This document shows positions 44,254-58,406 of a stretch of DNA of 64,000 bases, in pieces; within the stretch, counting starts at the first letter, position 1, and the number at the start of each line of letters is the position of its first letter. Source of the stretch: Anaerohalosphaeraceae bacterium (GTDB taxonomy: Bacteria; Planctomycetota; Phycisphaerae; Sedimentisphaerales; Anaerohalosphaeraceae); assembly GCA_050309605.1 (NCBI GenBank), contig JBNRMN010000034.1, positions 32,001-96,000 of the forward strand. Direction: 5' to 3'. The position numbers and the translations under genes were made by a program. The notes beneath the pieces were generated by a model, which worked only from the letters and a program-made list of their open reading frames with translations, ran no database searches and had not been told where the DNA came from.

Positions 44254-45279
44254 ATGATCGAGGCATTGCTGCTTGCCAATGTTGTCCAGGTCGGCTTTTT
44301 TATCGTGATCGGCCTGATCTTACTGCTCTTTGTGATGCTGGTGATTTTTTACGGGAATTTGTGGCTTCAGGCCCGATTCTCAGGCGCTCCGGTCTCCTTT
44401 GCCGAACTGATCGGGATGTCGCTTCGCAAGGTCAATTCCCGCACGATTGTTGTGAGTCGAATTACCGCGGCCAAGGCGGGTTTGGAGCTGACCACGGCGC
44501 AGCTTGAAAGCCATTATCTTGCCGGCGGACGTGTGCCGAATGTCGTCAGTGCGCTGATTGCCGCCGACCGAGCCAATATCAATCTGTCCTGGCAGGTTGC
44601 CACCGCGATTGATCTTGCCGGACGCGATATTCTCGAAGCGGTGCAAACCAGCGTCAATCCCAAGGTCATCGACTGTCCCGATCCGCGCAAAGGCCGCGAA
44701 ACCGTCGATGCGGTCGCCCAGGACGGCATTCAGCTCAAGGCCAAGGCCCGCGTAACGGTTCGTGCCAATATCGAGCGACTCATCGGCGGAGCAACCGAGG
44801 AGACCATCATCGCGCGTGTCGGTGAGGGAATTGTCACCACCATCGGCAGCGCGGTCAACCACAAAAGCGTGCTGGAAAATCCCGACCGCATTTCACGAGC
44901 GGTGCTCGAAAAAGGCCTGGATGCCGGCACGGCCTTTGAAATCCTGTCCATTGATATCGCGGATGTCGATGTAGGGCAAAATATCGGCGCCCAGCTTCAG
45001 GGAGCACAGGCCGAGGCCGACAAACTTCGCGCCAAGGCCGAGGCGGAAAAACGACGCGCCATGGCCGTCGCGCGCGAACAGGAAATGCGTGCGCTGGTCG
45101 AAGAAAATCGCGCCAAAGTGGTGCTGGCCGAGGCGGAAATCCCGCTGGCCATGGCCGAGGCCTTTCGCAAGGGCAATCTCGGTGTGATGGATTACTATCG
45201 CCTGAAAAATATCAAATCCGATACTGAAATGCGCGAATCCATTGCCAAAGGTGACGCCAAGCCCAAGTCGGAGGACTGA
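44254..45279 (+). CDS. floA: Flotillin-like protein FloA (YqfA)
   Basis: [68 protein letters not shown]. Confidence 0.95.
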
Positions 45280-46109: not shown

Positions 46110-46892
46110 TTAGTCGTCTGTTTGTCGCCGGGCGGCCAGAATCGCTGCGCCCAGGGCGCCGGTAAACTGTGGCGATTGACAGACCTTGACCGGTTGAGCC
46201 AGGACGGTTTCAAAGGCCTCGCGCATTCCCGAAATCAGCGCTGCGCCGCCGGTAAAATAGACGGGGCTTTGGATCAGGCCGCCGCCCATTGCCGCCAGTC
46301 GGCGTACGATGGCGTTTTGCACGCCGGCGATAATATTTTCGCGCGATTGGCCCTGGGCGAGCAGGCCGACGATCTCGGTCTCGGCAAAAACCACACAAAT
46401 GCTGCTGACGGCTGCGGGGGCATCGCTGCGGCGGGCGTAATCACCCAGCTCATCCAGCGGCACATCCAGCCGGTCGGCGACGACTTCCAGGAATCGCCCG
46501 GTCCCGGCGGCGCAGCGATCGTTCATCACAAAATCCCGCACCTTGCCCCGGCTGTCCAGTCGAATGAGTTTGCTGTCCTGTCCGCCGATGTCGATGACGG
46601 TGGCGACGTCCGGGTGCAGATGGGCGGCGCCGACGGCATGGCAGGTGATTTCGGTGATCGTCGTATCGCTTACATTCACGAGCCTGCGTCCGTAGCCGGT
46701 CGCGGCCACAGCGGCGACGCGACTGCGATTGATCTTTACCTCATTGAGGAGATCATAAAACAGGCGTCGAGCGCGACTCTGCTGATCGGCGCCCTGGTCG
46801 TCCAAGCGGCGGGCCAACACGGTTTGCTGTTGACTGTCCCACAGCACGGCCTTAAGCGTGCGCGAGCCGGCGTCAATGCCTGCGGTAATCAT
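46110..46892 (-). CDS. ATP-dependent [4Fe-4S] activase/reductase (HgdC/BcrAD/DCCP-R type, ASKHA ATPase)
   Basis: GIDAGSRTLK, ATGYGR, TEITCHA, IDIGGQDSK, MNDRCAAGTGRFLE, SSICVVFAETE, FTGG. Confidence 0.93.
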   Translation of the reverse strand: MITAGIDAGSRTLKAVLWDSQQQTVLARRLDDQGADQQSRARRLFYDLLNEVKINRSRVAAVAATGYGRRLVNVSDTTITEITCHAVGAAHLHPDVATVIDIGGQDSKLIRLDSRGKVRDFVMNDRCAAGTGRFLEVVADRLDVPLDELGDYARRSDAPAAVSSICVVFAETEIVGLLAQGQSRENIIAGVQNAIVRRLAAMGGGLIQSPVYFTGGAALISGMREAFETVLAQPVKVCQSPQFTGALGAAILAARRQTDD

Positions 46893-48280
46893 ATTGCTCT
46901 CCTGCTTTTTGCGGTTTCGATTAAGGCTTCCAATCGCGTTGTCAGCGATGATTCATACGGGTCAATCAGCGTGGGAATTTCGATATCCAGAACGGCAAGC
47001 GCGGTGTGGTTTCGAATGCAGTCGGCAATGAGTCTGCCTTCTGTGGCGCAGTGGCTGGCGCCGGGGATGCGGCTGAATACGACCGCCTCGGCGCCGACGG
47101 TATGAATGCTGCGCAGGATACCTCCTGCTCGTCGTTGAGCTGAGCCGGCCATCGGATCGGCCAGGGCGGCTGTGGCCAGGGCGACAAACGGGTCATCGGT
47201 TTCATCGATGGACATTAAAGCGTGCGGGAACATCAGCTCCGTGCCGCAGAGCCGTCCGCCGCACTGTTCCATCAGATTCATTGCATAGACATCTGCCGGC
47301 GGATTGACCCAGAAAACACGTACCGGTTCATTTGAAAGGACGCCGAGGTTGTTTTCGACGCGGCGGTTCACCTCGTTCAGCAGGCCGGTCAGGACGACCT
47401 CGGTCTCGTTCGGATCGGAACAAAAGTGAATCGCCAGCATCTCGGCCAGCATCATCTCCAGCGCCGGCAGGGGACATCGCGGTGCGGAGAACACCCTCAT
47501 TTTCAGGGTTCTCAAAAGCTTCCGGATGCGATTGGTTTGACGGATCGAAGTTCTGAGTTGTTGATGATCAAGCGGCCGGCCCGCAACCTCTGCGAGATAG
47601 TCGGCCACACGCATCAACTCACATCGCACATAATCGATTTGTTGTTCCGATGCCGTCAGGCCGTTGGGTCGAACACGGGCTGTTTGGCCGTTGTGCGGGT
47701 TGCGGTAATGGGGCATTTCCCACCAGAAGATTTCAAATCCGAGGCTTTCCAGCCGTGCCGCGGCGATGGAAAAATCGTCGCAGGTGGCCCCGACACTGCA
47801 CACGAGGGCGTCGGGAATCGGAAAATGCTGTCCGTTGACAAATGCCCCGACCATGGCGCGGACCGGACAAAACGCAGCGTCCAGTCCATATTGGTCGGCC
47901 AGCTCGAACAGGCCGTCTCGCTGCTGTTTGAAGCAGGGAATCCACCAGGCCGCGTCAGGATAAAACGCCGTCAGATTTTCAAAGGCGTATGCAATGACCG
48001 GTATCGTGCCGAGGTCTTTCATTGTGCCGATGATTTTGTTGCCCTGCCGGCGCCACAGCCGCAGGCGGTCTTCTTCGGTCAGTATCAAGTTCCACAAGGC
48101 CAGCGCCGCCGGCGCGTTGTCAAACCGCAGCCGGTCAAGCCGTTTGTCGCCGGCGTTAAAATGACGCTGCAGCGGCCCGCCGTAAAAGCGTTCTTTCAGG
48201 TCGGCCTCGCAAAGCTGTCGGTAGCGCTGCTGCCACTGGTCAAGCGTCAGTTGTGCAGGCGGTACGTTCATCGCTCCCAT
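46889..48280 (-). CDS. 2-hydroxyacyl-CoA dehydratase (HGD-D) family Fe-S protein, divergent
   Basis: AFCPVRAMVG, GATCDDFS, LRTSIRQTNRIRKLL, SHCATEG, LTTRLEALIE; overlaps both neighbours. Confidence 0.8.
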   Translation of the reverse strand: MGAMNVPPAQLTLDQWQQRYRQLCEADLKERFYGGPLQRHFNAGDKRLDRLRFDNAPAALALWNLILTEEDRLRLWRRQGNKIIGTMKDLGTIPVIAYAFENLTAFYPDAAWWIPCFKQQRDGLFELADQYGLDAAFCPVRAMVGAFVNGQHFPIPDALVCSVGATCDDFSIAAARLESLGFEIFWWEMPHYRNPHNGQTARVRPNGLTASEQQIDYVRCELMRVADYLAEVAGRPLDHQQLRTSIRQTNRIRKLLRTLKMRVFSAPRCPLPALEMMLAEMLAIHFCSDPNETEVVLTGLLNEVNRRVENNLGVLSNEPVRVFWVNPPADVYAMNLMEQCGGRLCGTELMFPHALMSIDETDDPFVALATAALADPMAGSAQRRAGGILRSIHTVGAEAVVFSRIPGASHCATEGRLIADCIRNHTALAVLDIEIPTLIDPYESSLTTRLEALIETAKSRRAI

Positions 48281-49119
48281 TGCTCCAAAAAAGCGTCCAG
48301 CCGCGACAGCGAAGCTGCTGACAGACGTGCGCAGGAATCGGTTTCAATGCAGATAAGCGGTACGGTAAGTCGCTTGCGCAGATCGAATATCGCCGCCTTC
48401 CAGTAATCACAGAACGGATGCCGGATGACCATCGCGCCAAGAACCCGACGGCGATGGATCGCCTCGCTGAGCCGGTCGAAAAACGGCTCAGCCGGACGCC
48501 GCCAGATCGCAGGCGTTGTCAGATAATGGTCGGCCAGCGCCGCAAGCGGAGGGCTGTTGCCCGCTGTCGGCTCGAAGGGCGTTCGCAGATTTTGCCATGC
48601 CGATTCGGTGCCGTTGAAAACAATCGGCAGACCGCGTGCGGCCGTAAGTTGAGTCAGATCGAAAAAATCGCACTCAAACAACGGCCCGCCGATCACGGCA
48701 AGCCCCTTGTCCTGCGATTCGACGGTTTGGGATGCTGAGTGATTCATTGGATCGGTCAGGAGGGCGGGATTAGTTCGACCGCCGTCCAGCTCGACCAGAC
48801 CGCGTTCCAGCCGTTCAAACTCGTCGCAAAGGATGGTGCGTGCCGTCGGGCTGCCGGTTTTGGGGATGTTCAGCAAAAACGCCGGTTTGTCCGATTGAAG
48901 GGTGTGTCTCTCATACATACGCCTCATCTGGTCGCAGCCGGTGGTAAAAACCGCCGCATCGACCTGTCGGACCGCAGCGGAAAAGGCGTTTGCCCACGCA
49001 CAAAGACCTTCGATCTCGTCGCGTCGTTCCGGCGTTGGTTCGGGACGACAGGGCGTGTGGCCGCAGGCGGTAATCAGCTCAATCGGAACAAACGGACAAC
49101 AATAACCGATTCTTGCCAT
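48268..49119 (-). CDS. 2-hydroxyacyl-CoA dehydratase family protein, shortened (about 283 aa)
   Basis: MARIGYCCPFVPIELITACG, GLCAWA, TTGCDQMRR, PFCDYW, IETD...SRLDAFLE; ATG at 49119, 4 nt after the upstream stop. Confidence 0.8.
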   Translation of the reverse strand: MARIGYCCPFVPIELITACGHTPCRPEPTPERRDEIEGLCAWANAFSAAVRQVDAAVFTTGCDQMRRMYERHTLQSDKPAFLLNIPKTGSPTARTILCDEFERLERGLVELDGGRTNPALLTDPMNHSASQTVESQDKGLAVIGGPLFECDFFDLTQLTAARGLPIVFNGTESAWQNLRTPFEPTAGNSPPLAALADHYLTTPAIWRRPAEPFFDRLSEAIHRRRVLGAMVIRHPFCDYWKAAIFDLRKRLTVPLICIETDSCARLSAASLSRLDAFLEQWER

Positions 49120-49123
49120 CGTA

Positions 49124-50269
49124 TCAGCCTGTCCTTTCGCGCAGCGTTTCGATGAGCGCTTCGATGCGCACCGACAGCCGGGGCGAATCCGACGGCGCAT
49201 AATCGGTCACGATTTTCAAATAGCCCAGACCTTTGCGCTCGGCCAGTTGACGCACATGATAGGATTCCACATCGTATGTCAGACAACCCTGCCAGACGAG
49301 ATCGATGATGCAGTCGGCGCTGTAGTCCTCGGTCAATTGATCGAGCAGCTCAAGCCGTCGCGTATTCGGCGTCATCACCGAGCAGGGCAGATGGAAATAC
49401 GTCTCGGCAATCGCCTCCAGCGGATCGATGGCCTGTTCCTCTACATCGTCAAGAACGGGTTTGATGCCGGTACAGTTTTCCATACACACCACCCGTGCAC
49501 CGGTGTGTTCGATTAAATCAACAATACGCTCGGCGCCGTGGACAGTCGGCACGCCGGTCAATAACACACGAATGCCGCTGTCGATGGTTGAACCGGCTGT
49601 GTCGGCAGATTCAAGCAATCGCTCATATTCATTCAAATCGTCCTCGATGCCGGAGATGATGCTTTTGAAGTCCAGCAGCCGTCGGCCTGTCCACGGCGGC
49701 CGGGGGCGTTTCATTTGCTCGGCCAGTTGCCGCCGCAATGCGCGTTCGCGATTCATTCGTTTGATGGCGCTGCGCAGCGCGTCGTCCGTGATACGGCACG
49801 ACAGACGGTCTTCGAGTACTGCTTTGAGTTTTCGCACCTCGGCCAGCCAATGCGTTCGGGCATTCGGGTCGTCGGCCTTTTGCGGCAGTTCAAGGATGTG
49901 CATCGGACGTTGCTGTGCCATTAGCTCGAACATTTTCTTCTTGCCGTCGCAGGTGGTCTCAGCCACGATCAAATCGGCCATAGCCAGAAAGGGGTTGCTG
50001 TCGGTGATGTGGTAGCCATAGGTGGATTTAATCAGGGGGCACAGGCCGGCGGGCAGGTCCTGTTCGGCCGGGGCAATTGTTTCCAGCGACCCGCCGCACA
50101 GACACACCGGCACACCGCCGGCGGCAAGAATCAGTTCGCGCGGTGTGTATTCGCACATAATCCCGACGATGGGACGACCCTGGGATTGGGCGGCTGTCGC
50201 AAAGGCGTAACAGTGTTGAATCATTTGATCGAAGCGGCATTGTATCTGCGGGTTTTGGTTCTGTGTCAT
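49124..50269 (-). CDS. Double-cubane-cluster-type / 2-hydroxyacyl-CoA dehydratase family anaerobic reductase
   Basis: GIMCEYTPRE, LCGG, LCPLIKSTYG, AETTCDGKKKMFE, ENCTG, LPCSVMTPN, GCLTYDVE, TDY....RIEALIE. Confidence 0.85.
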   Translation of the reverse strand: MTQNQNPQIQCRFDQMIQHCYAFATAAQSQGRPIVGIMCEYTPRELILAAGGVPVCLCGGSLETIAPAEQDLPAGLCPLIKSTYGYHITDSNPFLAMADLIVAETTCDGKKKMFELMAQQRPMHILELPQKADDPNARTHWLAEVRKLKAVLEDRLSCRITDDALRSAIKRMNRERALRRQLAEQMKRPRPPWTGRRLLDFKSIISGIEDDLNEYERLLESADTAGSTIDSGIRVLLTGVPTVHGAERIVDLIEHTGARVVCMENCTGIKPVLDDVEEQAIDPLEAIAETYFHLPCSVMTPNTRRLELLDQLTEDYSADCIIDLVWQGCLTYDVESYHVRQLAERKGLGYLKIVTDYAPSDSPRLSVRIEALIETLRERTG

Positions 50270-50308: not shown

Positions 50309-51124
50309 TTATGCGGTTTTTACCGCGACGAACAAAGCCTGGATGATTTTGCCCTCGCGGGCCAGTTTTTCCATGGCGGCCATCTCTTTGCCGATGGTGT
50401 TGAGCAGGGTCTGGTCAAAGCCGATAATTTTCAGGGCGTCATACGTAAGCTGCGTACCGACCATTTTTTGATAGAGTTCCACATGGTCGGCAAAGCGGCC
50501 GGTGTCTTCCAGGTGCTTGACGGTGCAGCCGCTTTGTTCAAGCAGAGCGGCGTATCCGCTGCGGCTCTGAAGGTTGGGGAATTTCATAAACGCCAGTGTC
50601 CGCTGCAATTCCTCGGCGGTCATCGGCACATCGCCGAGCACCCAGTCGGTAAAGGCAATCGTACCGCCGGGGCGGACGATGCGGCAGGCCTCGGCAATCA
50701 TCGTGTCTTTGTCTTCCACATAGCACCAGGCGTCCTCGCCCCAGACGAAATCGGCGCTGGCAGCGGCAAGTCCGCTATTGCAGACATCGGCCAGGACAAA
50801 CTGAATCTTATCGTCAGAATGTTCTTCCTGGCAACGTTTTTTACCCAGTTCGACCATCGCTGCTGTGGCATCAACGCCGGTCATGGCGGCGACGCCGCAG
50901 AACCGCACGAGGAAGCGCATCCCTGCGCCGCTGCAGCAGCAGAAATCCACGCCTTTGGTACCGGGCTGAATTGCGGCCTTCTTGGCCAGATCCATCGACG
51001 AGGTCAATCCGCCGATATGAATCTGCTCGCCCATGAGCAATTCCCAGAGTTTGCCTTCGGGGCCGCTATAAACCGTTTGAACCGCTGCCAGCGGACTGTT
51101 TGATTGTTGTGCTGTTTGCTTCAT
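50309..51124 (-). CDS. Class I SAM-dependent methyltransferase with Cys-rich motif I
   Basis: GEQIHIGG, VDFCCCSGAG (motif I), TGVDAT, FVLADVC, DAWCYV, RIVRPGGTIAFTDW. Confidence 0.88.
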   Translation of the reverse strand: MKQTAQQSNSPLAAVQTVYSGPEGKLWELLMGEQIHIGGLTSSMDLAKKAAIQPGTKGVDFCCCSGAGMRFLVRFCGVAAMTGVDATAAMVELGKKRCQEEHSDDKIQFVLADVCNSGLAAASADFVWGEDAWCYVEDKDTMIAEACRIVRPGGTIAFTDWVLGDVPMTAEELQRTLAFMKFPNLQSRSGYAALLEQSGCTVKHLEDTGRFADHVELYQKMVGTQLTYDALKIIGFDQTLLNTIGKEMAAMEKLAREGKIIQALFVAVKTA

Positions 51125-51140: not shown

Positions 51141-51174
51141 AAAAAAAGCGGGCCGAAACTGTTTTTCGACCCGC
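51141..51174 (-). terminator. Intrinsic terminator between the small selenoprotein ORF and the methyltransferase operon
   Basis: GCGGGTCGAAA-AACAG-TTTCGGCCCGC (11-bp stem, one G-U) followed by T7. Confidence 0.8.
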
Positions 51175-51203
51175 CGATACTTGCTCTGTTGTGTGAGGAC
51201 TGC

Positions 51204-51464
51204 TTATCGCGTCAACTCCTCAATCGAATACCATCGGTTTTCCTGGTGGACGGTAAACGGTCCGGAATCGATGTCGATTTCGATGCGGAACCGCCTGCGG
51301 AAGTCCTCTGGCACTCGCCACGAGTACCGGCAGGTGCTGCCTCACCCATACTCCATAGAGCCGGTGCGCAGGAAACCGCCGTCTTCAAGCCGAGCTGTTT
51401 CGAAGTTTGTATAGAAAAACGAATAGCCAGGAGATTGCGAATGTTTTTTTTCGATTCCCGTCAT
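51204..51464 (-). CDS. Putative small soluble selenoprotein (86 aa, Sec41, G-U-G-S-T-C)
   Basis: MTGIEKKHSQSPGYSFFYTNFETARLEDGGFLRTGSMEYG-U-GSTCRYSWRVPEDFRRRFRIEIDIDSGPFTVHQENRWYSIEELTR. Single in-frame TGA at 51344-51342; SECIS-like hairpin 13 nt downstream; divergent from selA. Confidence 0.75.
51310..51328 (-). promoter_or_regulatory. Putative bacterial SECIS element
   Basis: GGUACUCG-UGG-CGAGUGCC: 8-bp stem, UGG loop, starting 13 nt after UGA. Confidence 0.7.
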
Positions 51465-51539: not shown

Positions 51540-51664
51540 TTTTTACCGTTTTAACAGAAAAAAAGCAAGCGGATTCAACGACATTTTTGTATTGTACAAA
51601 AAAAGCACAAAATGTCTTGAATTTAAGTGTCTTGGCTTGCTTTTTGGGCGGATCGGCGTACAAT
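51540..51664. promoter_or_regulatory. Divergent promoter region (selenoprotein operon / selAB)
   Basis: Plus: TTGCTT(51637)-16nt-TACAAT(51659). Minus: TTGCTT(51568)-17nt-TAAAAA. Nested inverted repeats lie between them. Confidence 0.55.
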
Positions 51665-51710: not shown

Positions 51711-53111
51711 ATGGAAGCACAGATTCAGGCGCAGCTTCGGCAGATTCCTTCGGTGGATGCGGTGTTATCGCAGATTCAGGCACATCCGGCGGCCCGGCGT
51801 GTGGGTGCGGCGATGCGGACGCAACTGGTGCGCGAGGTGATTGAGACAATCCGCCGGCAGGTGCGGGACGGGACATTTTCAGCCGATGCCGATATGGCCG
51901 GGGCGGTGCGGGACCGGATCGAGCGGCGACTGGAAGCGGTGGCGGGGGTGTTTTATCGACGGGTGGTCAATGCGGCCGGGATCATTCTGCACACCGGACT
52001 GGGACGGGCGCCGCTGGCGGGTGAGGTCCTGGAGCAGATCAGCTGGCAGTTGGGCGGGTATTCGCTGTTGCAGGTGGATGTCGAGGCGGGCAAGCGGTCC
52101 TCGCGAGATGGACGGATTGAAGACTTGCTCAAACTGCTGACCGGCGCCGAAGCGGCGACCGTGGTGAATAATAACGCCGCGGCCACGGCGCTGGTGCTGA
52201 ACACCATTGCCGCAGGCAAAGAGGTCATCGTGTCGCGCGGACAGCTCGTCGAGATCGGCGGGGCGTTTCGCCTGCCGGACGTGATGGCCTTTAGCGGGGC
52301 CAGGCTGGTCGAGGTGGGTACCACCAACAAGACGCACCTGCGGGATTATGAGAATGCGATTACCGAAAACACCGCCGCGATTTTGCGGGTGCATCCGAGC
52401 AATTATAAGATTACGGGTTTTACGAGCGAAGTGCCGCTGGAGGAGATGGTCAAGCTGGCCCACGCCAACGGCCTTTTGCTGTTTGATGATGTCGGGGCCG
52501 GGTCGCTGATTGATTTTTCGCGATTTGGATTTGAAAAAGAGCCGACGTTGATGGAATCGGTCGCCGCCGGGGCCGATGTGATTACCTCCAGCGGCGACAA
52601 ACTCATCGGGGCCTCTCAGGCGGGGATCGTCCTTGGCCGTGCCGAAATCATCCAGAAGGTGCGCAAAAATCAATTTGCGCGGATCGTGCGGGTCGATAAG
52701 TTTACGCTGGCGGCGTTGGAGGCGACGCTGAAATTGTTTCTGGATGAGGCGGCGGTGTTGGAAAAGGTGCCCGCCTTGCGGCTGATGCTGCGTTCGGCGG
52801 AGGAGATTCAGCGGCAGGCCGAGCGCATCTGCGAACGGGTGCAGAGGGCCTGCCCTGATGCGTGCGTCTCACTGCTGCCGGGCCAGTCGCAAATCGGAAG
52901 CGGCTCACTGCCCGGACAAAACCTGCCGACGACCCTGGTGGCAATTGCGTCGCCGCATCAATCCGCTGCGGCACTGGCCGACACGCTGCGGGGCGCTGCG
53001 ACGCCGGTCTTTACGCGCATCGGCGATGATCGTGTGCTGATTGACCCGCGCACGCTGCTGGACGGCGATGAGGCGATTTTGATTGAGACGCTGGTTGAAA
53101 TTCTGCATTAA
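51711..53111 (+). CDS. selA: L-seryl-tRNA(Sec) selenium transferase
   Basis: RVVNAAGIILHTGLGRAPL, VVNNNAAA, SRGQLVEIGGAFRLPDVM, EVGTTNKTH, HPSNY, SGDKLIG (PLP Lys), GSGSLP. Confidence 0.97.
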   Translation: MEAQIQAQLRQIPSVDAVLSQIQAHPAARRVGAAMRTQLVREVIETIRRQVRDGTFSADADMAGAVRDRIERRLEAVAGVFYRRVVNAAGIILHTGLGRAPLAGEVLEQISWQLGGYSLLQVDVEAGKRSSRDGRIEDLLKLLTGAEAATVVNNNAAATALVLNTIAAGKEVIVSRGQLVEIGGAFRLPDVMAFSGARLVEVGTTNKTHLRDYENAITENTAAILRVHPSNYKITGFTSEVPLEEMVKLAHANGLLLFDDVGAGSLIDFSRFGFEKEPTLMESVAAGADVITSSGDKLIGASQAGIVLGRAEIIQKVRKNQFARIVRVDKFTLAALEATLKLFLDEAAVLEKVPALRLMLRSAEEIQRQAERICERVQRACPDACVSLLPGQSQIGSGSLPGQNLPTTLVAIASPHQSAAALADTLRGAATPVFTRIGDDRVLIDPRTLLDGDEAILIETLVEILH

Positions 53112-53181: not shown

Positions 53182-55089
53182 ATGACCCAAATCAACATCA
53201 CTCTCGGCACCGCCGGGCATATTGACCACGGCAAGACGGCGTTGATCCGCTTGCTGACCGGCTGTGAGACCGACCGGCTCAAGGTCGAAAAACAGCGTGG
53301 CATGAGCATTGAGCTGGGCTTTGCCCCGTGTCTGCTGGGGGATAGGGAGGTGGGGATCGTCGATGTCCCCGGACACGAACATTTCATCAAGACGATGGTC
53401 GCCGGCGCCGCGGGCATTGACGGAGTGCTGTTTGTCGTGGCCGCCGATGACGGGATTATGCCTCAGACGCGCGAGCATCTGGAGATTTTGACCCTGCTGG
53501 GCGTGCGGCACGGCCTGACCGTCCTGACCAAGATCGATCGTGTTTCGGAGGAGCGCGTCGAGGCAGCGATCGATGAACTCCGAACGTTTTTGTGCGGCAC
53601 GTTTTTGCATGATGCCCCGATTTGCCCGATGTCCAGCATCACCGGGCAGGGATTCGACGGATTCTATACGGCGTTGAAAGATGTGGTCGCTTCCATATGC
53701 CCCAAAAGCATTGACGGGGTGTTTCGTCTGCCGGTGGAACGGGCGTTTTCGGTCAAGGGCTTCGGCACAGTGCTCAGCGGCATCCCCGCCGCCGGTTCGG
53801 CACAGATCGGCCAGGAAGTCGTCCTGCTGCCGAGCGGACAAACCGGACGCATCAAGGCGATACAGGTTTACGGCAAGCCGTCCGAATACGTGCGAAGCGG
53901 CCAGTGTGCGGCGCTGAATATCCCGCAGATGGATTATCGTACTATCCGACGGGGCGACGTGTTGACGGTAGAGGGGTATTTTTCTCCGACGCAGTGGTTT
54001 TTGTGTGCCGCCGCGGTGCTGCCCGGTCAGTCGCTGCCTGTTAAAAACGGTGCTGAGATGAGGTTCCACACCGGCACGGCGGATGTTGCGGCCAATGTTT
54101 ATCGTGTTGAGCGAGACGAGTACTTTGCCGACGGCGACTTCCTGCTTCAGATTCGTGCGCATACGCCGCTTGTGGCCGCCCCCGGCGACCGGTTTATCCT
54201 GCGGTCGCTGTCGCCGATGCGTACCGTCGGCGGGGGGCGCATCCTTCAGGCGATGTCATCGCGTCTTCGGTATGCTCACGGGCGGGGGCCGGCCTATGCC
54301 AAAGCACTGGCCGAGGCGCAGCGGAATGAAACGGCATTTGTCGCTTTTGCGGTGGAATCGGCGGCGTCCGGCGTCGCACGGCTTGATGATCTCACGTCGT
54401 TTACCAAGCAGAAGCCTGAGCGGGTGCGGCGGCTGCTGGCGGATTTGCTGCAGACACAAACCGTTGTCGCTTTGTCCGGCGATGTGTATATCCACGCCCG
54501 AAAACTGTCGGTGATGTGCCGGCACATCACCGAAACGCTTGAGCAGTTTCACGCCGACCATCCCGAACGGCCGGGCATGGATGCGGAAGCTTTAGCCGAG
54601 CGGCTTGAACTGGGCAAAGGCGTTTTTGATGCCCTGCTGGAAGTTGCCCTGAAACAAGGGACGGTCGTGCGGCGTCTGGATCGGCTGGCACTGCCGTCGC
54701 ACACCGAAACCTGCAATCCGGCTCTGGCAAAACGGCTCCGGCAAATCGAAACAGCGTTCCTGAAAAACCTGTTTGCTCCTCCCGGCCTCAATGAACTGAC
54801 GGCCGAGTCCGGCCTGACCCCATCACAAATCCGGGAGGCCATTACGATTTTGATCGAACAGAAAAAACTATTTTATGTGGACCGAACGATGGTATTCCAC
54901 GCCGAGGCCGTAAAGCAGGCCAAACGCCGTATTGCCGAGCATATTCAGGGCCAAGGGCGGGGCCGTCTGGAAAGCGTCGCATTCAAATACTTGATTGATA
55001 CGACCCGAAAATACGCCATTCCGCTGCTGGATTATATGGACAAAATCGGCTTTACCCGTCGGGTCGGCAATACACGTTACTTGAAATAA
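53182..55089 (+). CDS. selB: Selenocysteine-specific elongation factor
   Basis: GTAGHIDHGKT, DRLKVEKQRGMSIELGF, DVPGHEHF, TKID, VERAFSVKGFGTV, C-terminal SECIS-binding winged helix TTRKYAIPLLDYMD...TRRVGNTR. Confidence 0.97.
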   Translation: MTQINITLGTAGHIDHGKTALIRLLTGCETDRLKVEKQRGMSIELGFAPCLLGDREVGIVDVPGHEHFIKTMVAGAAGIDGVLFVVAADDGIMPQTREHLEILTLLGVRHGLTVLTKIDRVSEERVEAAIDELRTFLCGTFLHDAPICPMSSITGQGFDGFYTALKDVVASICPKSIDGVFRLPVERAFSVKGFGTVLSGIPAAGSAQIGQEVVLLPSGQTGRIKAIQVYGKPSEYVRSGQCAALNIPQMDYRTIRRGDVLTVEGYFSPTQWFLCAAAVLPGQSLPVKNGAEMRFHTGTADVAANVYRVERDEYFADGDFLLQIRAHTPLVAAPGDRFILRSLSPMRTVGGGRILQAMSSRLRYAHGRGPAYAKALAEAQRNETAFVAFAVESAASGVARLDDLTSFTKQKPERVRRLLADLLQTQTVVALSGDVYIHARKLSVMCRHITETLEQFHADHPERPGMDAEALAERLELGKGVFDALLEVALKQGTVVRRLDRLALPSHTETCNPALAKRLRQIETAFLKNLFAPPGLNELTAESGLTPSQIREAITILIEQKKLFYVDRTMVFHAEAVKQAKRRIAEHIQGQGRGRLESVAFKYLIDTTRKYAIPLLDYMDKIGFTRRVGNTRYLK

Positions 55090-55404: not shown

Positions 55405-57996
55405 TCAACGGCTTTCAAAGGTGCGCCCGCCGGAGCCGACCGATTCAATGACCCACCAGCCGTCCGATTGGACGGCCTCAGTCGGTTTGCCGTTCATCAG
55501 CACGGCCGGGCGGTCGCTGTGCTGAACGGGCAGATATACCTCTGCGGTCATATTGGCCGGCAGGGTGATGTCCAGTTCAAAGGTCCCCGCCGTATCGCGA
55601 AAGGCCGCCTCGATAGTCCCCCGAATCGTCGGAAGCCTGAGCTGTGCCCATTCCAGCCCGCCGGTTTGCGGACGGATGCGAATGCGACCGTAACCGGCCT
55701 CGATCGGTTCAATGCCGAACAGTCGGCGGGGGATGATATTGAGCGGGGCACTGGCCCATGGGTGGGCATAGCTCATATTGGGCTTGCCGGACGGATCCCA
55801 TGACTCAGTGGTGATAGTCGCGCCGAGGTGATGGATCATATGATGCCAGGAATGTTTCTCGGTCGAGGTCATCAGTGCCAGCGCCGCATCACCGCGGTCG
55901 GCGTTATACAGCGCATCGAGCAGGTATTGCGCCCCATACACGCTGCAAACCATTCCTTTCTCGATCAGAAACTGAGCCACTAACTTTTTGCGTTCCGGCG
56001 GCGTGACCGTCAGCGCCAGCGGAAAGAAGTTCGCATGAGCAGCGCTGTGGGCGCTGTCGCGTCCGTCGCGATAGATACCGGATTGTGCATCGAACAGATG
56101 GGTGTTTATTGCATTTTTGACCTGCTCGGCTGCGGCGGCGTAACGAGTTGGGTCGTTGGTTTTATCCAATACGCCGGCGATGCGGCTGAGCAGCTCCACG
56201 GCCTTATAATGAAAGGCATTCGTTACGGTGTTGATCGGCGTAAATTCATAGCCGTCGCGATAATACGCCGGCCAATCCACCAGCACGCGGTCGTTGTCGC
56301 TGTCGTGTTTTTCGACCAGTCCCTGTTCATTGACAAAATCGCACAGCGTTTTGGTCGTCAGGATATCATAGTGTCGGCGAATGGATTTTGCGTCGCCGGT
56401 GGCCATATAATCGGCCCAGGCCATCAGCAGGCAGGTTTGCTTGTACTCGGTCGGCCAGGTCGGGCGATGATACAGGTATTCGTTGGTATAACGGGCAAAC
56501 GCATATTCACGATCCGCCGCGTAATGGGAGAGCATATTGATGTAGGCGTCGCCCTCATACGGGCCGCGCTCGCGTGTCGGACAGTCCTGATACAGGTCGA
56601 TGTTGGTCGCCTTGATGCTGTAATGGCATAAGTCCCAGACTTCATTCAGGATGGTACTGGAACTGTCAAAGGCCGCCGCGTCCTGATCAAACGGATACTC
56701 AAGCGTCACAGTGCTCAGCACGAAGTCATCCGTCGGCAGGTTCAGCAGCTCGCCGTAGCGAAACCCGCGATAGCCGAAGTTCTCGATCACTTGCAGCCCG
56801 TCGCGCAGCGTCCATTTCTCGGCATAGGTAACGCCCGTGCGGGCTTGGTGACGAACGGTCTTATCGCCGTCCAGCTCTTCGCCGAGGCGTACTTCGATCT
56901 GTCGTCCGTTCGTGCCTTCAATGGACAGACGCACACACCCGACAATCTCCCTACCAAAATCAAAGAAATAATGCCCTTCGCTTTTTTTGTGCATCAGGAC
57001 GGGCTTGACCTCTTCCATTTGCACATTGCGAATCGGCTGAGCAACCAGTCGCTCGGCATAATGCGGTACGGTGCGCACCGAACGCCAGCCGCTGTCGTCA
57101 AAGTCGGTCCTCAGCCAGCCGTGCGGTTCATTGCGGGCGTCGATATGTTCCGGGCCGGCCTCGTAATACCAAAAAAACTTCGGCCCCATATTATAATAAG
57201 GATCGGCGTTGATCCCCCGCCACGTATCGTCTGTGCCGAATGTGCCGACGGCGTCGTCTTTGTAGAAGACTTTGATCTCGGCGATAAAATCTTTGGCGCG
57301 ACCATTGGAAAAACAGATGGCCCCCAGCACATGACTCGTTCCGGCGGTCAAATGCTCAGTGATATCGAAAACGTTGTAGGGCACCTTGCCGTCGTAGCCT
57401 CGCGCCGGCCCAATGCCGATGGGTGTGTCGTTGACATAGAATTTGAAGACATACTGGCGCGACGGATGGGTATCGCGCCCGCTGACAAATGCGAACGCCT
57501 TCTCGATGGGTTTGTCAGGCAGTTCTATCGTATCGCGCAGGAACACATATTTATTTTCTGCCGCTGCCCAGATCGGACGGGCGGACCAGGTGTCTTTCAG
57601 TGCCGTGACGAACAATTGCGGCTCGGCATACGGCCCCGGCTGGTTTCTGTTGTTCCAGGTCCGAACCGTCCACCGGTACATCCGCCCGGGTTGCAGTTCC
57701 GGCCCGGCATACGGCACGGCAATCGACCGCGGCGAAGCGACTTTGCCGGAATCCCACACCAGCGTCCGCTTGCTGCTGAGGCCGGTATAGACCTGAATCT
57801 GATAAGCCGTCTGCACGGCGTCAGGCTGCGGGTCGTTGACAATCCAGGAAAACGCCGGCGTAAAATCCTCAATTCCCAGCGGCTCGGGGTTTAAGTCACA
57901 CAGCAAACCCGTCGGTTGTTGCGGCGGTCTGGCACACCCGCAGGCCGCCAACAGCGTACCGGCCAAGAGAACCTTACAGCAGTGTCTTAAGTTCAT
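55405..57996 (-). CDS. Alpha-L-rhamnosidase-like lipoprotein (GH78)
   Basis: Lipobox LAAC; QTAYQI..WDSGKV, FDFGRE, YRGFRY, DCPTRERGPYEGD, GATITTESW, SYAHPW; start uncertain (57996-58008). Confidence 0.9.
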   Translation of the reverse strand: MNLRHCCKVLLAGTLLAACGCARPPQQPTGLLCDLNPEPLGIEDFTPAFSWIVNDPQPDAVQTAYQIQVYTGLSSKRTLVWDSGKVASPRSIAVPYAGPELQPGRMYRWTVRTWNNRNQPGPYAEPQLFVTALKDTWSARPIWAAAENKYVFLRDTIELPDKPIEKAFAFVSGRDTHPSRQYVFKFYVNDTPIGIGPARGYDGKVPYNVFDITEHLTAGTSHVLGAICFSNGRAKDFIAEIKVFYKDDAVGTFGTDDTWRGINADPYYNMGPKFFWYYEAGPEHIDARNEPHGWLRTDFDDSGWRSVRTVPHYAERLVAQPIRNVQMEEVKPVLMHKKSEGHYFFDFGREIVGCVRLSIEGTNGRQIEVRLGEELDGDKTVRHQARTGVTYAEKWTLRDGLQVIENFGYRGFRYGELLNLPTDDFVLSTVTLEYPFDQDAAAFDSSSTILNEVWDLCHYSIKATNIDLYQDCPTRERGPYEGDAYINMLSHYAADREYAFARYTNEYLYHRPTWPTEYKQTCLLMAWADYMATGDAKSIRRHYDILTTKTLCDFVNEQGLVEKHDSDNDRVLVDWPAYYRDGYEFTPINTVTNAFHYKAVELLSRIAGVLDKTNDPTRYAAAAEQVKNAINTHLFDAQSGIYRDGRDSAHSAAHANFFPLALTVTPPERKKLVAQFLIEKGMVCSVYGAQYLLDALYNADRGDAALALMTSTEKHSWHHMIHHLGATITTESWDPSGKPNMSYAHPWASAPLNIIPRRLFGIEPIEAGYGRIRIRPQTGGLEWAQLRLPTIRGTIEAAFRDTAGTFELDITLPANMTAEVYLPVQHSDRPAVLMNGKPTEAVQSDGWWVIESVGSGGRTFESR

Positions 57997-58406
57997 AAAA
58001 AACCTCATTGTACATCTTTAATCGTAAGTCTTGATTGCTTTCAGAGTATAACGCAAAAATCCTGTGGTGTCCAATGACTCGCACGCACCGCCGGTTCTTT
58101 TCAAAAAGTCCAAACGGATACCGCCGATACCGCGTCAGCCGGACTGGGAGGTGGAATCTGATTATGGGACGATGTTAAAAAAGTTTTGTTGCACAGCGGC
58201 CCCAAAGGGCTTGTGGATGGATCTTTTATCGGAAGTAAGTTGGCTTATGTCTTTTTTATACAGCAACTTGTATATTTTTTCGAAAAGTGTATCACGGTTG
58301 TTGATATGTTTAAGTTAGCCCGAAGACCGGTTTGACCGATACAACGGCGTAACGTAATTTTTACGAAGGGAAAGGTCTCGCAAGCGTGTCTTGAAAGTCG
58401 ATAACA

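Follow-up and report, generated by a model that had tools for sequence, protein, structure and literature searches.

A Truncated Selenoprotein Gene as a Candidate Selenocysteine-Sensing Leader Upstream of a Methyltransferase and Double-Cubane Reductase Operon in Planctomycetota

Introduction

A short reading frame with a single in-frame TGA, encoded divergently from selA and selB in an Anaerohalosphaeraceae bacterium, is proposed to be the translated leader of a transcription attenuator that senses selenocysteine (Sec) ahead of an operon for a methyltransferase and a double-cubane reductase; on the sequence comparisons described here, this reading stands at about even probability. In a wider form it would apply to an order of PVC-type anaerobes, in which a dedicated Sec-sensing attenuator would use the SECIS element both as insertion signal and as sensor arm of the switch. 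Such switches would govern genes for an outer-membrane channel, an ABC importer, the methyltransferase, the double-cubane reductase and selD, would have evolved repeatedly, each time through reduction of a selenoprotein gene lying upstream until only the regulatory core was left, and would descend from a new multi-copy family (up to 8 per genome) of extracytoplasmic selenoproteins. Taken jointly, these wider points are put forward tentatively, a little short of even confidence.

If the proposal is correct, the 21st amino acid would for the first time be found as the signal of an attenuator, and the leader would be a clear case of a SECIS element recruited for gene control. It would also link double-cubane reductases with selA, selB and selD, both physically and in their regulation, so that the use these enzymes make of selenium could be approached by experiment; the tight co-occurrence of double-cubane proteins with selD was noted and left unexplained by Haft and Gwadz (10.1101/2022.07.06.499078). 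Finally, it would reveal a family of selenoprotein domains whose members gene callers truncate or misread, although genomes of the Planctomycetota/Verrucomicrobiota type contain them in abundance.

The Reading Frame, Its TGA and the Hairpin

The stretch of DNA analyzed (64,000 nucleotides, hereafter the window) contains the features collected in Table 1. Rechecking of the coordinates upheld an earlier note on this DNA, which had described the frame as open but for a TGA at codon 41: the start codon occupies 51464-51462 and the stop codon 51206-51204 (minus strand), with 40 codons before the single interrupting TGA and 45 after it. The Cys four residues past Sec (U-x3-C) and the in-frame TAA upstream of the ATG, 11 codons before it, were found as described. 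The SECIS-like hairpin reported 13 nt after the TGA is also present. Among 50 distinct family members (TGA-plus-42-nt segments), 41 have it at the same distance past the TGA with at least 7 of its 8 pairs.

Table 1. Features of the window and their positions (position 1 is the first letter of the window).
Feature	Position	Strand	Remarks
Promoter-like site upstream of the frame	51591..51618	-	Weak: 1 site vs 0.8 expected by chance
Reading frame (proposed leader)	51204..51464	-	40 codons + TGA (Sec) + 45 codons + TAA
In-frame TGA, very probably read as Sec	51342..51344	-	Codon 41
Segment A	51318..51335	-	Spacer end + SECIS 5' arm + loop; could pair within the SECIS or with segment B
SECIS hairpin, GGUACUCG-UGG-CGAGUGCC	51310..51328	-	8 bp, UGG loop, 13 nt past TGA
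Segment B	51169..51186	-	Complement of A; its 3' part is the terminator 5' arm
Intrinsic terminator	51141..51175	-	12-bp stem 51175-51147, T-run to 51141
SAM methyltransferase (ArsM/UbiE-like)	50309..51124	-	First gene past the terminator
Double-cubane-cluster anaerobic reductase	49124..50269	-	NF040772, 406.5 bits, cut-off 350
Two further HGD-D family proteins	48268-49200 and 46889-48280	-	
Acyl-CoA dehydratase-type ATP-dependent activase (BcrAD/BadFG)	46110..46892	-	
selA	51711-53111	+	Adjoins the frame, divergent
selB	53182-55089	+	Divergent from the frame

Folded alone, the 81-nt piece of the window that carries the hairpin is unremarkable (z -1.02), so that the significance of the hairpin comes from comparison across family members and not from single-sequence folding. 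The ATG at 51464 is preceded by GGAG only, poorly spaced, and a promoter may lie inside the proposed leader. A search with Rfam gave one tRNA only at gathering thresholds and chance-level matches at E<=10. Metagenomic strains from two studies differ from the window at 51338, 51254, 51246, 51239, 51237 and 51211 and by a 1-nt deletion at 51598; three of the strain amino-acid changes (S43G, T71A and N76E) match the state of a second species of the genus (G002; the window genome is G000).

A Selenocysteine-Decoding Domain Family

Judged by conservation and covariation, the TGA of the window is very probably a genuine Sec codon, belonging to a family that is absent from the libraries and lists checked. 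The translated homology search that had been suggested as a check recovered homologues conserved on both sides of the TGA, with TGA or Cys at that position. In a six-frame search of relatives an in-frame TGA occupies the aligned position in all 27 places with E<=1e-3, and in a sample of the phylum 22 of 401 genomes have matches, up to 8 copies each, with TGA in 51 of 61 places. The alignments define the motif YG-U-GG-x-C-x-x-SWR-x-P, in which conservation flanks U on both sides. Cys replaces Sec in a Pirellulales genome (locus L022) and, as read by eye in 39 of the 150 matches listed, in the database proteins P0028, P0032, P0033, P0042, P0043, P0057 and P0134. A contig scan with U back-translated as Cys yielded one Cys homologue only, and a word-indexed homologue search gave no candidate of 47-151 aa. 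Other database proteins carry G (P0009, P0011, P0016, P0025, P0029) or W (P0022, P0128) at the Sec position, probably because the TGA was read under translation tables 25 or 4.

The hairpin behaves as a conserved RNA element. In the SECIS alignment 85.8% of the cells pair, as against 22.8-54.5% when the partners are slid, and compensatory changes occur in five of the eight pairs, the observed values being reached in none of 500 shuffles. The hairpin is missing from seven of the eight homologues that lack the TGA, these seven forming only 2-3 of the 8 pairs. The remaining one, a TGT-Cys homologue of the Pirellulales (L022:2819-2992), retains 7 of 8 SECIS pairs and looks, from its sequence, like the fossil of a SECIS after a recent Sec-to-Cys change. 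The hairpin also codes for RYSWRVP or SLSWREP, and part of what appears as a protein motif is therefore dictated by the RNA. As selA, selB, tRNA-Sec and selD are all encoded in the window genome, the marks by which selenoproteins are recognized in silico (a UGA with conservation on both sides, a covarying SECIS, Cys homologues and Sec machinery) are found together.

The suggestion of a new selenoprotein family has thus held up, on the strength of conservation on both sides of the TGA, the hairpin, the Cys homologues and the lack of a family model in the libraries checked. Neither Pfam (E<=0.01) nor NCBIfam (E<=1) returned a family for the window frame; two larger paralogues gave unrelated matches only in the same libraries, leaving the domain without a model; and the Sao, Tso and Mdu families had no profile match to the frame at the Pfam/NCBIfam thresholds used. 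Among known families, DUF1573 is also an Ig-like domain and is found in PVC bacteria. The DUF1573 "UGC" protein, the UGSC-containing protein and the hypothetical protein DG "GUxG" are likewise small or modular, with Sec near Cys or Gly, as given in Table 1 of a 2026 review (PMC13188914); the domain described here differs in that its U-x3-C sits between two strands and in having no Pfam/NCBIfam match. No U-x3-C Ig-like family appears among the 119 families as tabulated in that review, and the families of Haft and Tolstoy (2025, mSystems) were compared through the table of the review and NCBIfam.

Truncation of the Frame and Sequence Constraint

By its sequence relationships, the window frame derives from a gene for a Sec-domain protein, of which it preserves the end in 5'-truncated form. 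Its closest relatives are the C-terminal domains of 462-aa membrane-anchored proteins in the genomes G046 and G055, with 63% and 58% identity, respectively, over residues 30-85. Full-size membrane-anchored relatives comprise about 210-460 aa, of which the window copy keeps the last part of the C-terminal domain, and homology begins only at about residue 28 of 86 (possibly 11). Compared with G002, DNA similarity extends from about 13 codons before the TGA through the terminator, with unalignable sequence upstream; this shared segment is 83% identical over 231 nt, vs 75.6-77.8% in the flanking genes.

The earlier note had taken the 86-codon frame for a complete soluble selenoprotein, a view that the comparisons do not support. 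The domain is partial, since the first two strands of the 114-aa domain model have no counterpart in the frame, and omega between G000 and G002 is 0.60-0.74 (pS 0.14), compared to 0.12 (pS 0.52-0.53) for selA and the methyltransferase gene and 0.08-0.26 for the same region of whole family genes. The low pS of 51204-51364 against G002 is explained in part by constraint at the RNA level, and a recent exchange between the two species may be a further source of it. The differences between G000 and G002 spare second codon positions (by-eye tally from the alignment), and the 45 codons past the UGA of the window still resemble the protein domain; some selection on the peptide may therefore act on this copy.

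Shorter versions of 40-60 codons in other genera appear, from their substitution patterns, to evolve like constrained RNA and not like protein. A 60-codon mini-frame compared across five species of one genus has its variable sites spread 10/11/14 over the three codon positions, as against 39/23/134 in the methyltransferase gene, and its omega is 0.33-1.18 vs 0.07-0.13 (pS 0.05-0.22 vs 0.15-0.55).

These data bear on the possibility, which is considered improbable, that the frame encodes a working small soluble selenoprotein of at most 86 aa, which would employ the U-x3-C loop for selenium, metal or redox chemistry and whose own gene would be ended by the terminator. The frame is indeed intact in the window, in G002 and in a third genome (G048), with 44-45 post-UGA codons that can be aligned to the domain, YG, U and Cys+4 are retained even in the shortest versions, and omega is as low as 0.26-0.33 when G048 is compared with G000 or G002. 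However, besides the two absent strands of the beta-sandwich and the high omega between G000 and G002, the first 27 or so residues of these two species of one genus bear no relation to each other, and two metagenomic strains show, past the TGA, four amino-acid changes vs one silent change (worked out by hand). Moreover, G048 has lost the otherwise invariant Trp while keeping the hairpin, the evenly varying mini-frames of other genera have no protein homology past the SECIS, and a small selenoprotein would leave the long-range complementarity described below unexplained.

The Terminator and a Conserved Long-Range Complementarity

The intrinsic terminator, a strong one that was absent from the earlier note, lies about 28 nt past the stop codon of the frame, and the next ATG (51124) follows 16 nt after the T-run. 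A terminator occurs past 25 of 30 such frames, at 21-41 nt from the stop, and in the six leaders read, the window included, the next ATG lies 12-52 nt past the T-run. Upstream tandem copies and other paralogues are without a terminator. The layout is that of an attenuator, with a short frame containing a putative sensing codon, a terminator, and a first structural gene that leaves no room for a promoter. An alternative pairing that excludes the terminator is likewise found in silico: segment A could either form part of the SECIS or bind to segment B and, as segment B contains the 5' arm of the terminator, the A:B pairing is the proposed antiterminator.

The complementarity of A and B is conserved. 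The energy of the duplex ranges from -14.7 to -30.4 kcal/mol and beats the 10-21 intervening control windows of each sequence in 25 of 25 cases, and in 24 of the 25 sequences at most 3 of 200 shuffled versions of B reach the observed value. The 18-bp A:B helix was evaluated on an alignment of 27 sequences, where 83.1% of its cells pair, vs 33.3-44.2% when slid, and the same feature is present in G055, G024 and G068. In two terminators that follow unrelated paralogues this complementarity was lacking: 91 and 146 of the 200 shuffles did as well. Covariation within the helix is weak, with nine cells changed on both sides over five pairs, a score reached in 22 of 500 shuffles; single compensatory changes are seen in G526 and G484. 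The energies of cognate and non-cognate A:B pairs (-24.0 vs -23.0 kcal/mol) do not discriminate between them either, so that the support for the A:B pairing consists of a conserved complementarity that relatives may share by descent.

Forced folds suggest that the two states are close in energy. On average, the A:B state and the state with SECIS plus terminator are 0.6 kcal/mol apart (range -11.6 to +12.8), with values of -73.8 and -77.4 kcal/mol, respectively, in the window. Of the terminator 5' arm, 7 nt are also part of the A:B helix, and 0-10 terminator base pairs form in the A:B state vs 11-17 in the other one. A lower stem that extends the SECIS appears in the predicted fold of G002 and is absent from that of G000.

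The same architecture could be what is left of a deleted gene, an inert remnant with its old terminator and a complementarity inherited from the 3' end, where it may have served, for example, to stabilize the mRNA. This explanation is regarded as unlikely, to the same degree as a small selenoprotein. Where whole family genes occupy this position, segment B and the terminator are present as well, both of which therefore predate the truncation, and the frame is absent at E<=1e-8 from two complete genomes of the same genus (G001 and G003). Nevertheless, neutral sequence between G000 and G002 can no longer be aligned, yet the remnant is more similar than the flanking genes, to the extent given above, and UGA, hairpin, segment B and terminator have survived in at least five separately reduced lineages of two families.

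Neighboring Genes and the Same Place in Relatives

The preferred reading, that of a Sec-sensing leader, draws on the genes that accompany the frame. Orthologues of the methyltransferase are found in 33 of 201 genomes of the order, and 24 of the 30 methyltransferase loci fetched have a frame with TGA and SECIS at most 1.5 kb upstream on the same strand, either as a whole gene of 206-462 aa or as a mini-frame of 54-128 aa. Frames of 40 codons in G016 and 54 codons in G034 each lie between selA and the methyltransferase gene; protein similarity past the SECIS is gone from both, and UGA, YG, Cys+4, the full hairpin and the terminator are kept. The operon behind the element ends in selD in G002, G016 and G034, and in the window genome selD is located on contig C64, outside the operon behind the proposed leader. 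It had also been suggested that the frame encodes a substrate for the downstream enzymes, for which no support was obtained; the conserved feature is the RNA architecture that links the frame to those genes.

The position of the element next to selA-selB, from which it diverges in G000, G002, G048, G016 and G034, together with its own terminator and the precedent of SelB bound to a SECIS-like element that controls selAB in Escherichia coli, as summarized for that system (10.64898/2026.03.03.709296), would suit a small SelB-binding RNA that tunes selA-selB expression or buffers free SelB, acting either in trans or on the divergent promoter region; this is the least probable of the explanations considered, since the element is on the strand opposite selAB and therefore not in the selAB mRNA, in most of the six leaders read the next gene is so near the terminator that an independent promoter would not fit, and other genes intervene between the element and selA in the genus g18 and in G055.

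G055 was considered as a genome with the downstream genes of the window and was rejected, as its last Sec gene is followed by genes for an outer-membrane barrel and an ABC importer and by selD. This locus (L039:7658-11310) encodes a MetA-like outer-membrane barrel, an NMT1-like binding protein, a permease and an ATPase, followed by SelD, and looks like a candidate selenium uptake locus. In G055 (L039:11307-12740, 477 aa) and in G002 (L041:1526-3229, 567 aa) SelD is fused to a C-terminal CMD/AhpD-like domain, and these fused genes end operons behind a Sec leader or a Sec gene. In genus g18 (L082-L087) a conserved TTGGCA/TTGACA - 18 nt - GATAAT is present about 40 nt upstream of the 60-codon mini-frame. 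The promoter-like -10 box overlaps codons 2-4 of the presumed frame (by eye), and the true start codons are therefore uncertain and possibly further downstream. The selenium region of the window is flanked by ordinary-looking genes for a GH78 alpha-L-rhamnosidase (55405-58008, minus strand) and a flotillin-like FloA (44254-45279, plus strand).

Proposed Mechanism and Known Systems

Under the proposed mechanism, the ancestral gene would have encoded a membrane-anchored protein ending in a Sec-containing Ig-like domain and would have been cut down to its last part, in which UGA and SECIS, a stretch of codons and the terminator are retained. Segment A would alternate between the local SECIS pairing and pairing with the distal segment B, and the A:B pairing would block termination and allow transcription into the operon for methyltransferase, double-cubane reductase and activase. 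When Sec-tRNA(Sec) and SelB are present, the SECIS would be bound and the ribosome would read on to the stop codon just before B; the terminator could then form and the operon would be damped, if the direction of the switch is as presumed. When Sec is lacking, translation would stop at the UGA, A would pair with B and the operon would be transcribed. With this presumed direction, the logic is likely to be a negative feedback on genes for selenium acquisition and activation.

The attenuators of trp, his and pheA consist of a translated frame with the sensing codon, a terminator before the first structural gene and an alternative pairing over the 5' arm of the terminator. The layout of the proposed leader is the same in these general terms; it differs from trp and his in that it would sense UGA-Sec, in that the sensing hairpin is the SECIS and hence the binding site of SelB, in the pairing scheme (1:2, 1:3 and 3:4 as opposed to 1:2, 2:3 and 3:4), and in its visible origin from the 3' part of a protein-coding gene.

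Two systems are closer with respect to selenium. In Treponema primitia, selenium controls transcription past the UGA/SECIS of fdhF-Sec by means of translational coupling, and an undecoded UGA uncouples translation and truncates the transcript near the SECIS, according to the published account (PMC3892789). This likeness is limited by the fact that the effect occurs inside the gene of a functional enzyme, for which that account describes no dedicated antiterminator/terminator pair (PMC3892789), whereas the window has a reduced frame and a conserved long-range complement before a separate operon. In E. coli, SelB binds a SECIS-like element in the selAB leader, a SECIS structure that, as outlined in the report (10.64898/2026.03.03.709296), regulates selenium-metabolism genes and does not make a selenoprotein. 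That element is described there as untranslated, as located within the selAB mRNA and as blocking translation initiation; in contrast, the element of the window is on the strand opposite selAB, has an in-frame UGA and is coupled to a terminator.

The Sec Domain and Its Larger Paralogues

The family domain is modeled with confidence by AlphaFold as a generic Ig-like beta-sandwich of about 110 residues and eight strands, in which Sec and Cys flank an inter-strand turn. The 114-aa domain gave a pLDDT of 92.6 (37 sequences), and a 455-aa relative a pLDDT of 87.2 (22 sequences), with an N-terminal helix followed by all-beta domains. Fold searches returned generic Ig, fibronectin or macroglobulin-like matches and no functional lead, the best ones being at E 2.7e-3 and TMq 0.50 with Foldseek and at Z 9.5 and rmsd 2.5 over 95 residues with VIA. 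A Cys-form relative in the database leads to uncharacterised clusters of about 393 aa, mostly from Planctomycetota and Verrucomicrobiota.

The domain is placed at the C-terminus of membrane-anchored proteins or internally in LamG-type proteins of about 960 aa, and the parent proteins might bind selenium or a metalloid, or carry out redox chemistry, outside the cytoplasm. Two larger paralogues are encoded on contig C2 of the window genome. The first (L021:6808-9696) is a protein of 962 aa with a signal peptide, a LamG domain, a C-terminal anchor and Sec at position 390 (U390), and the second (L021:12322-13476), with about 385 aa and U102, is a membrane protein of the multi-pass type; between them lies the gene of an 834-aa protein with seven CarboxypepD_reg domains.
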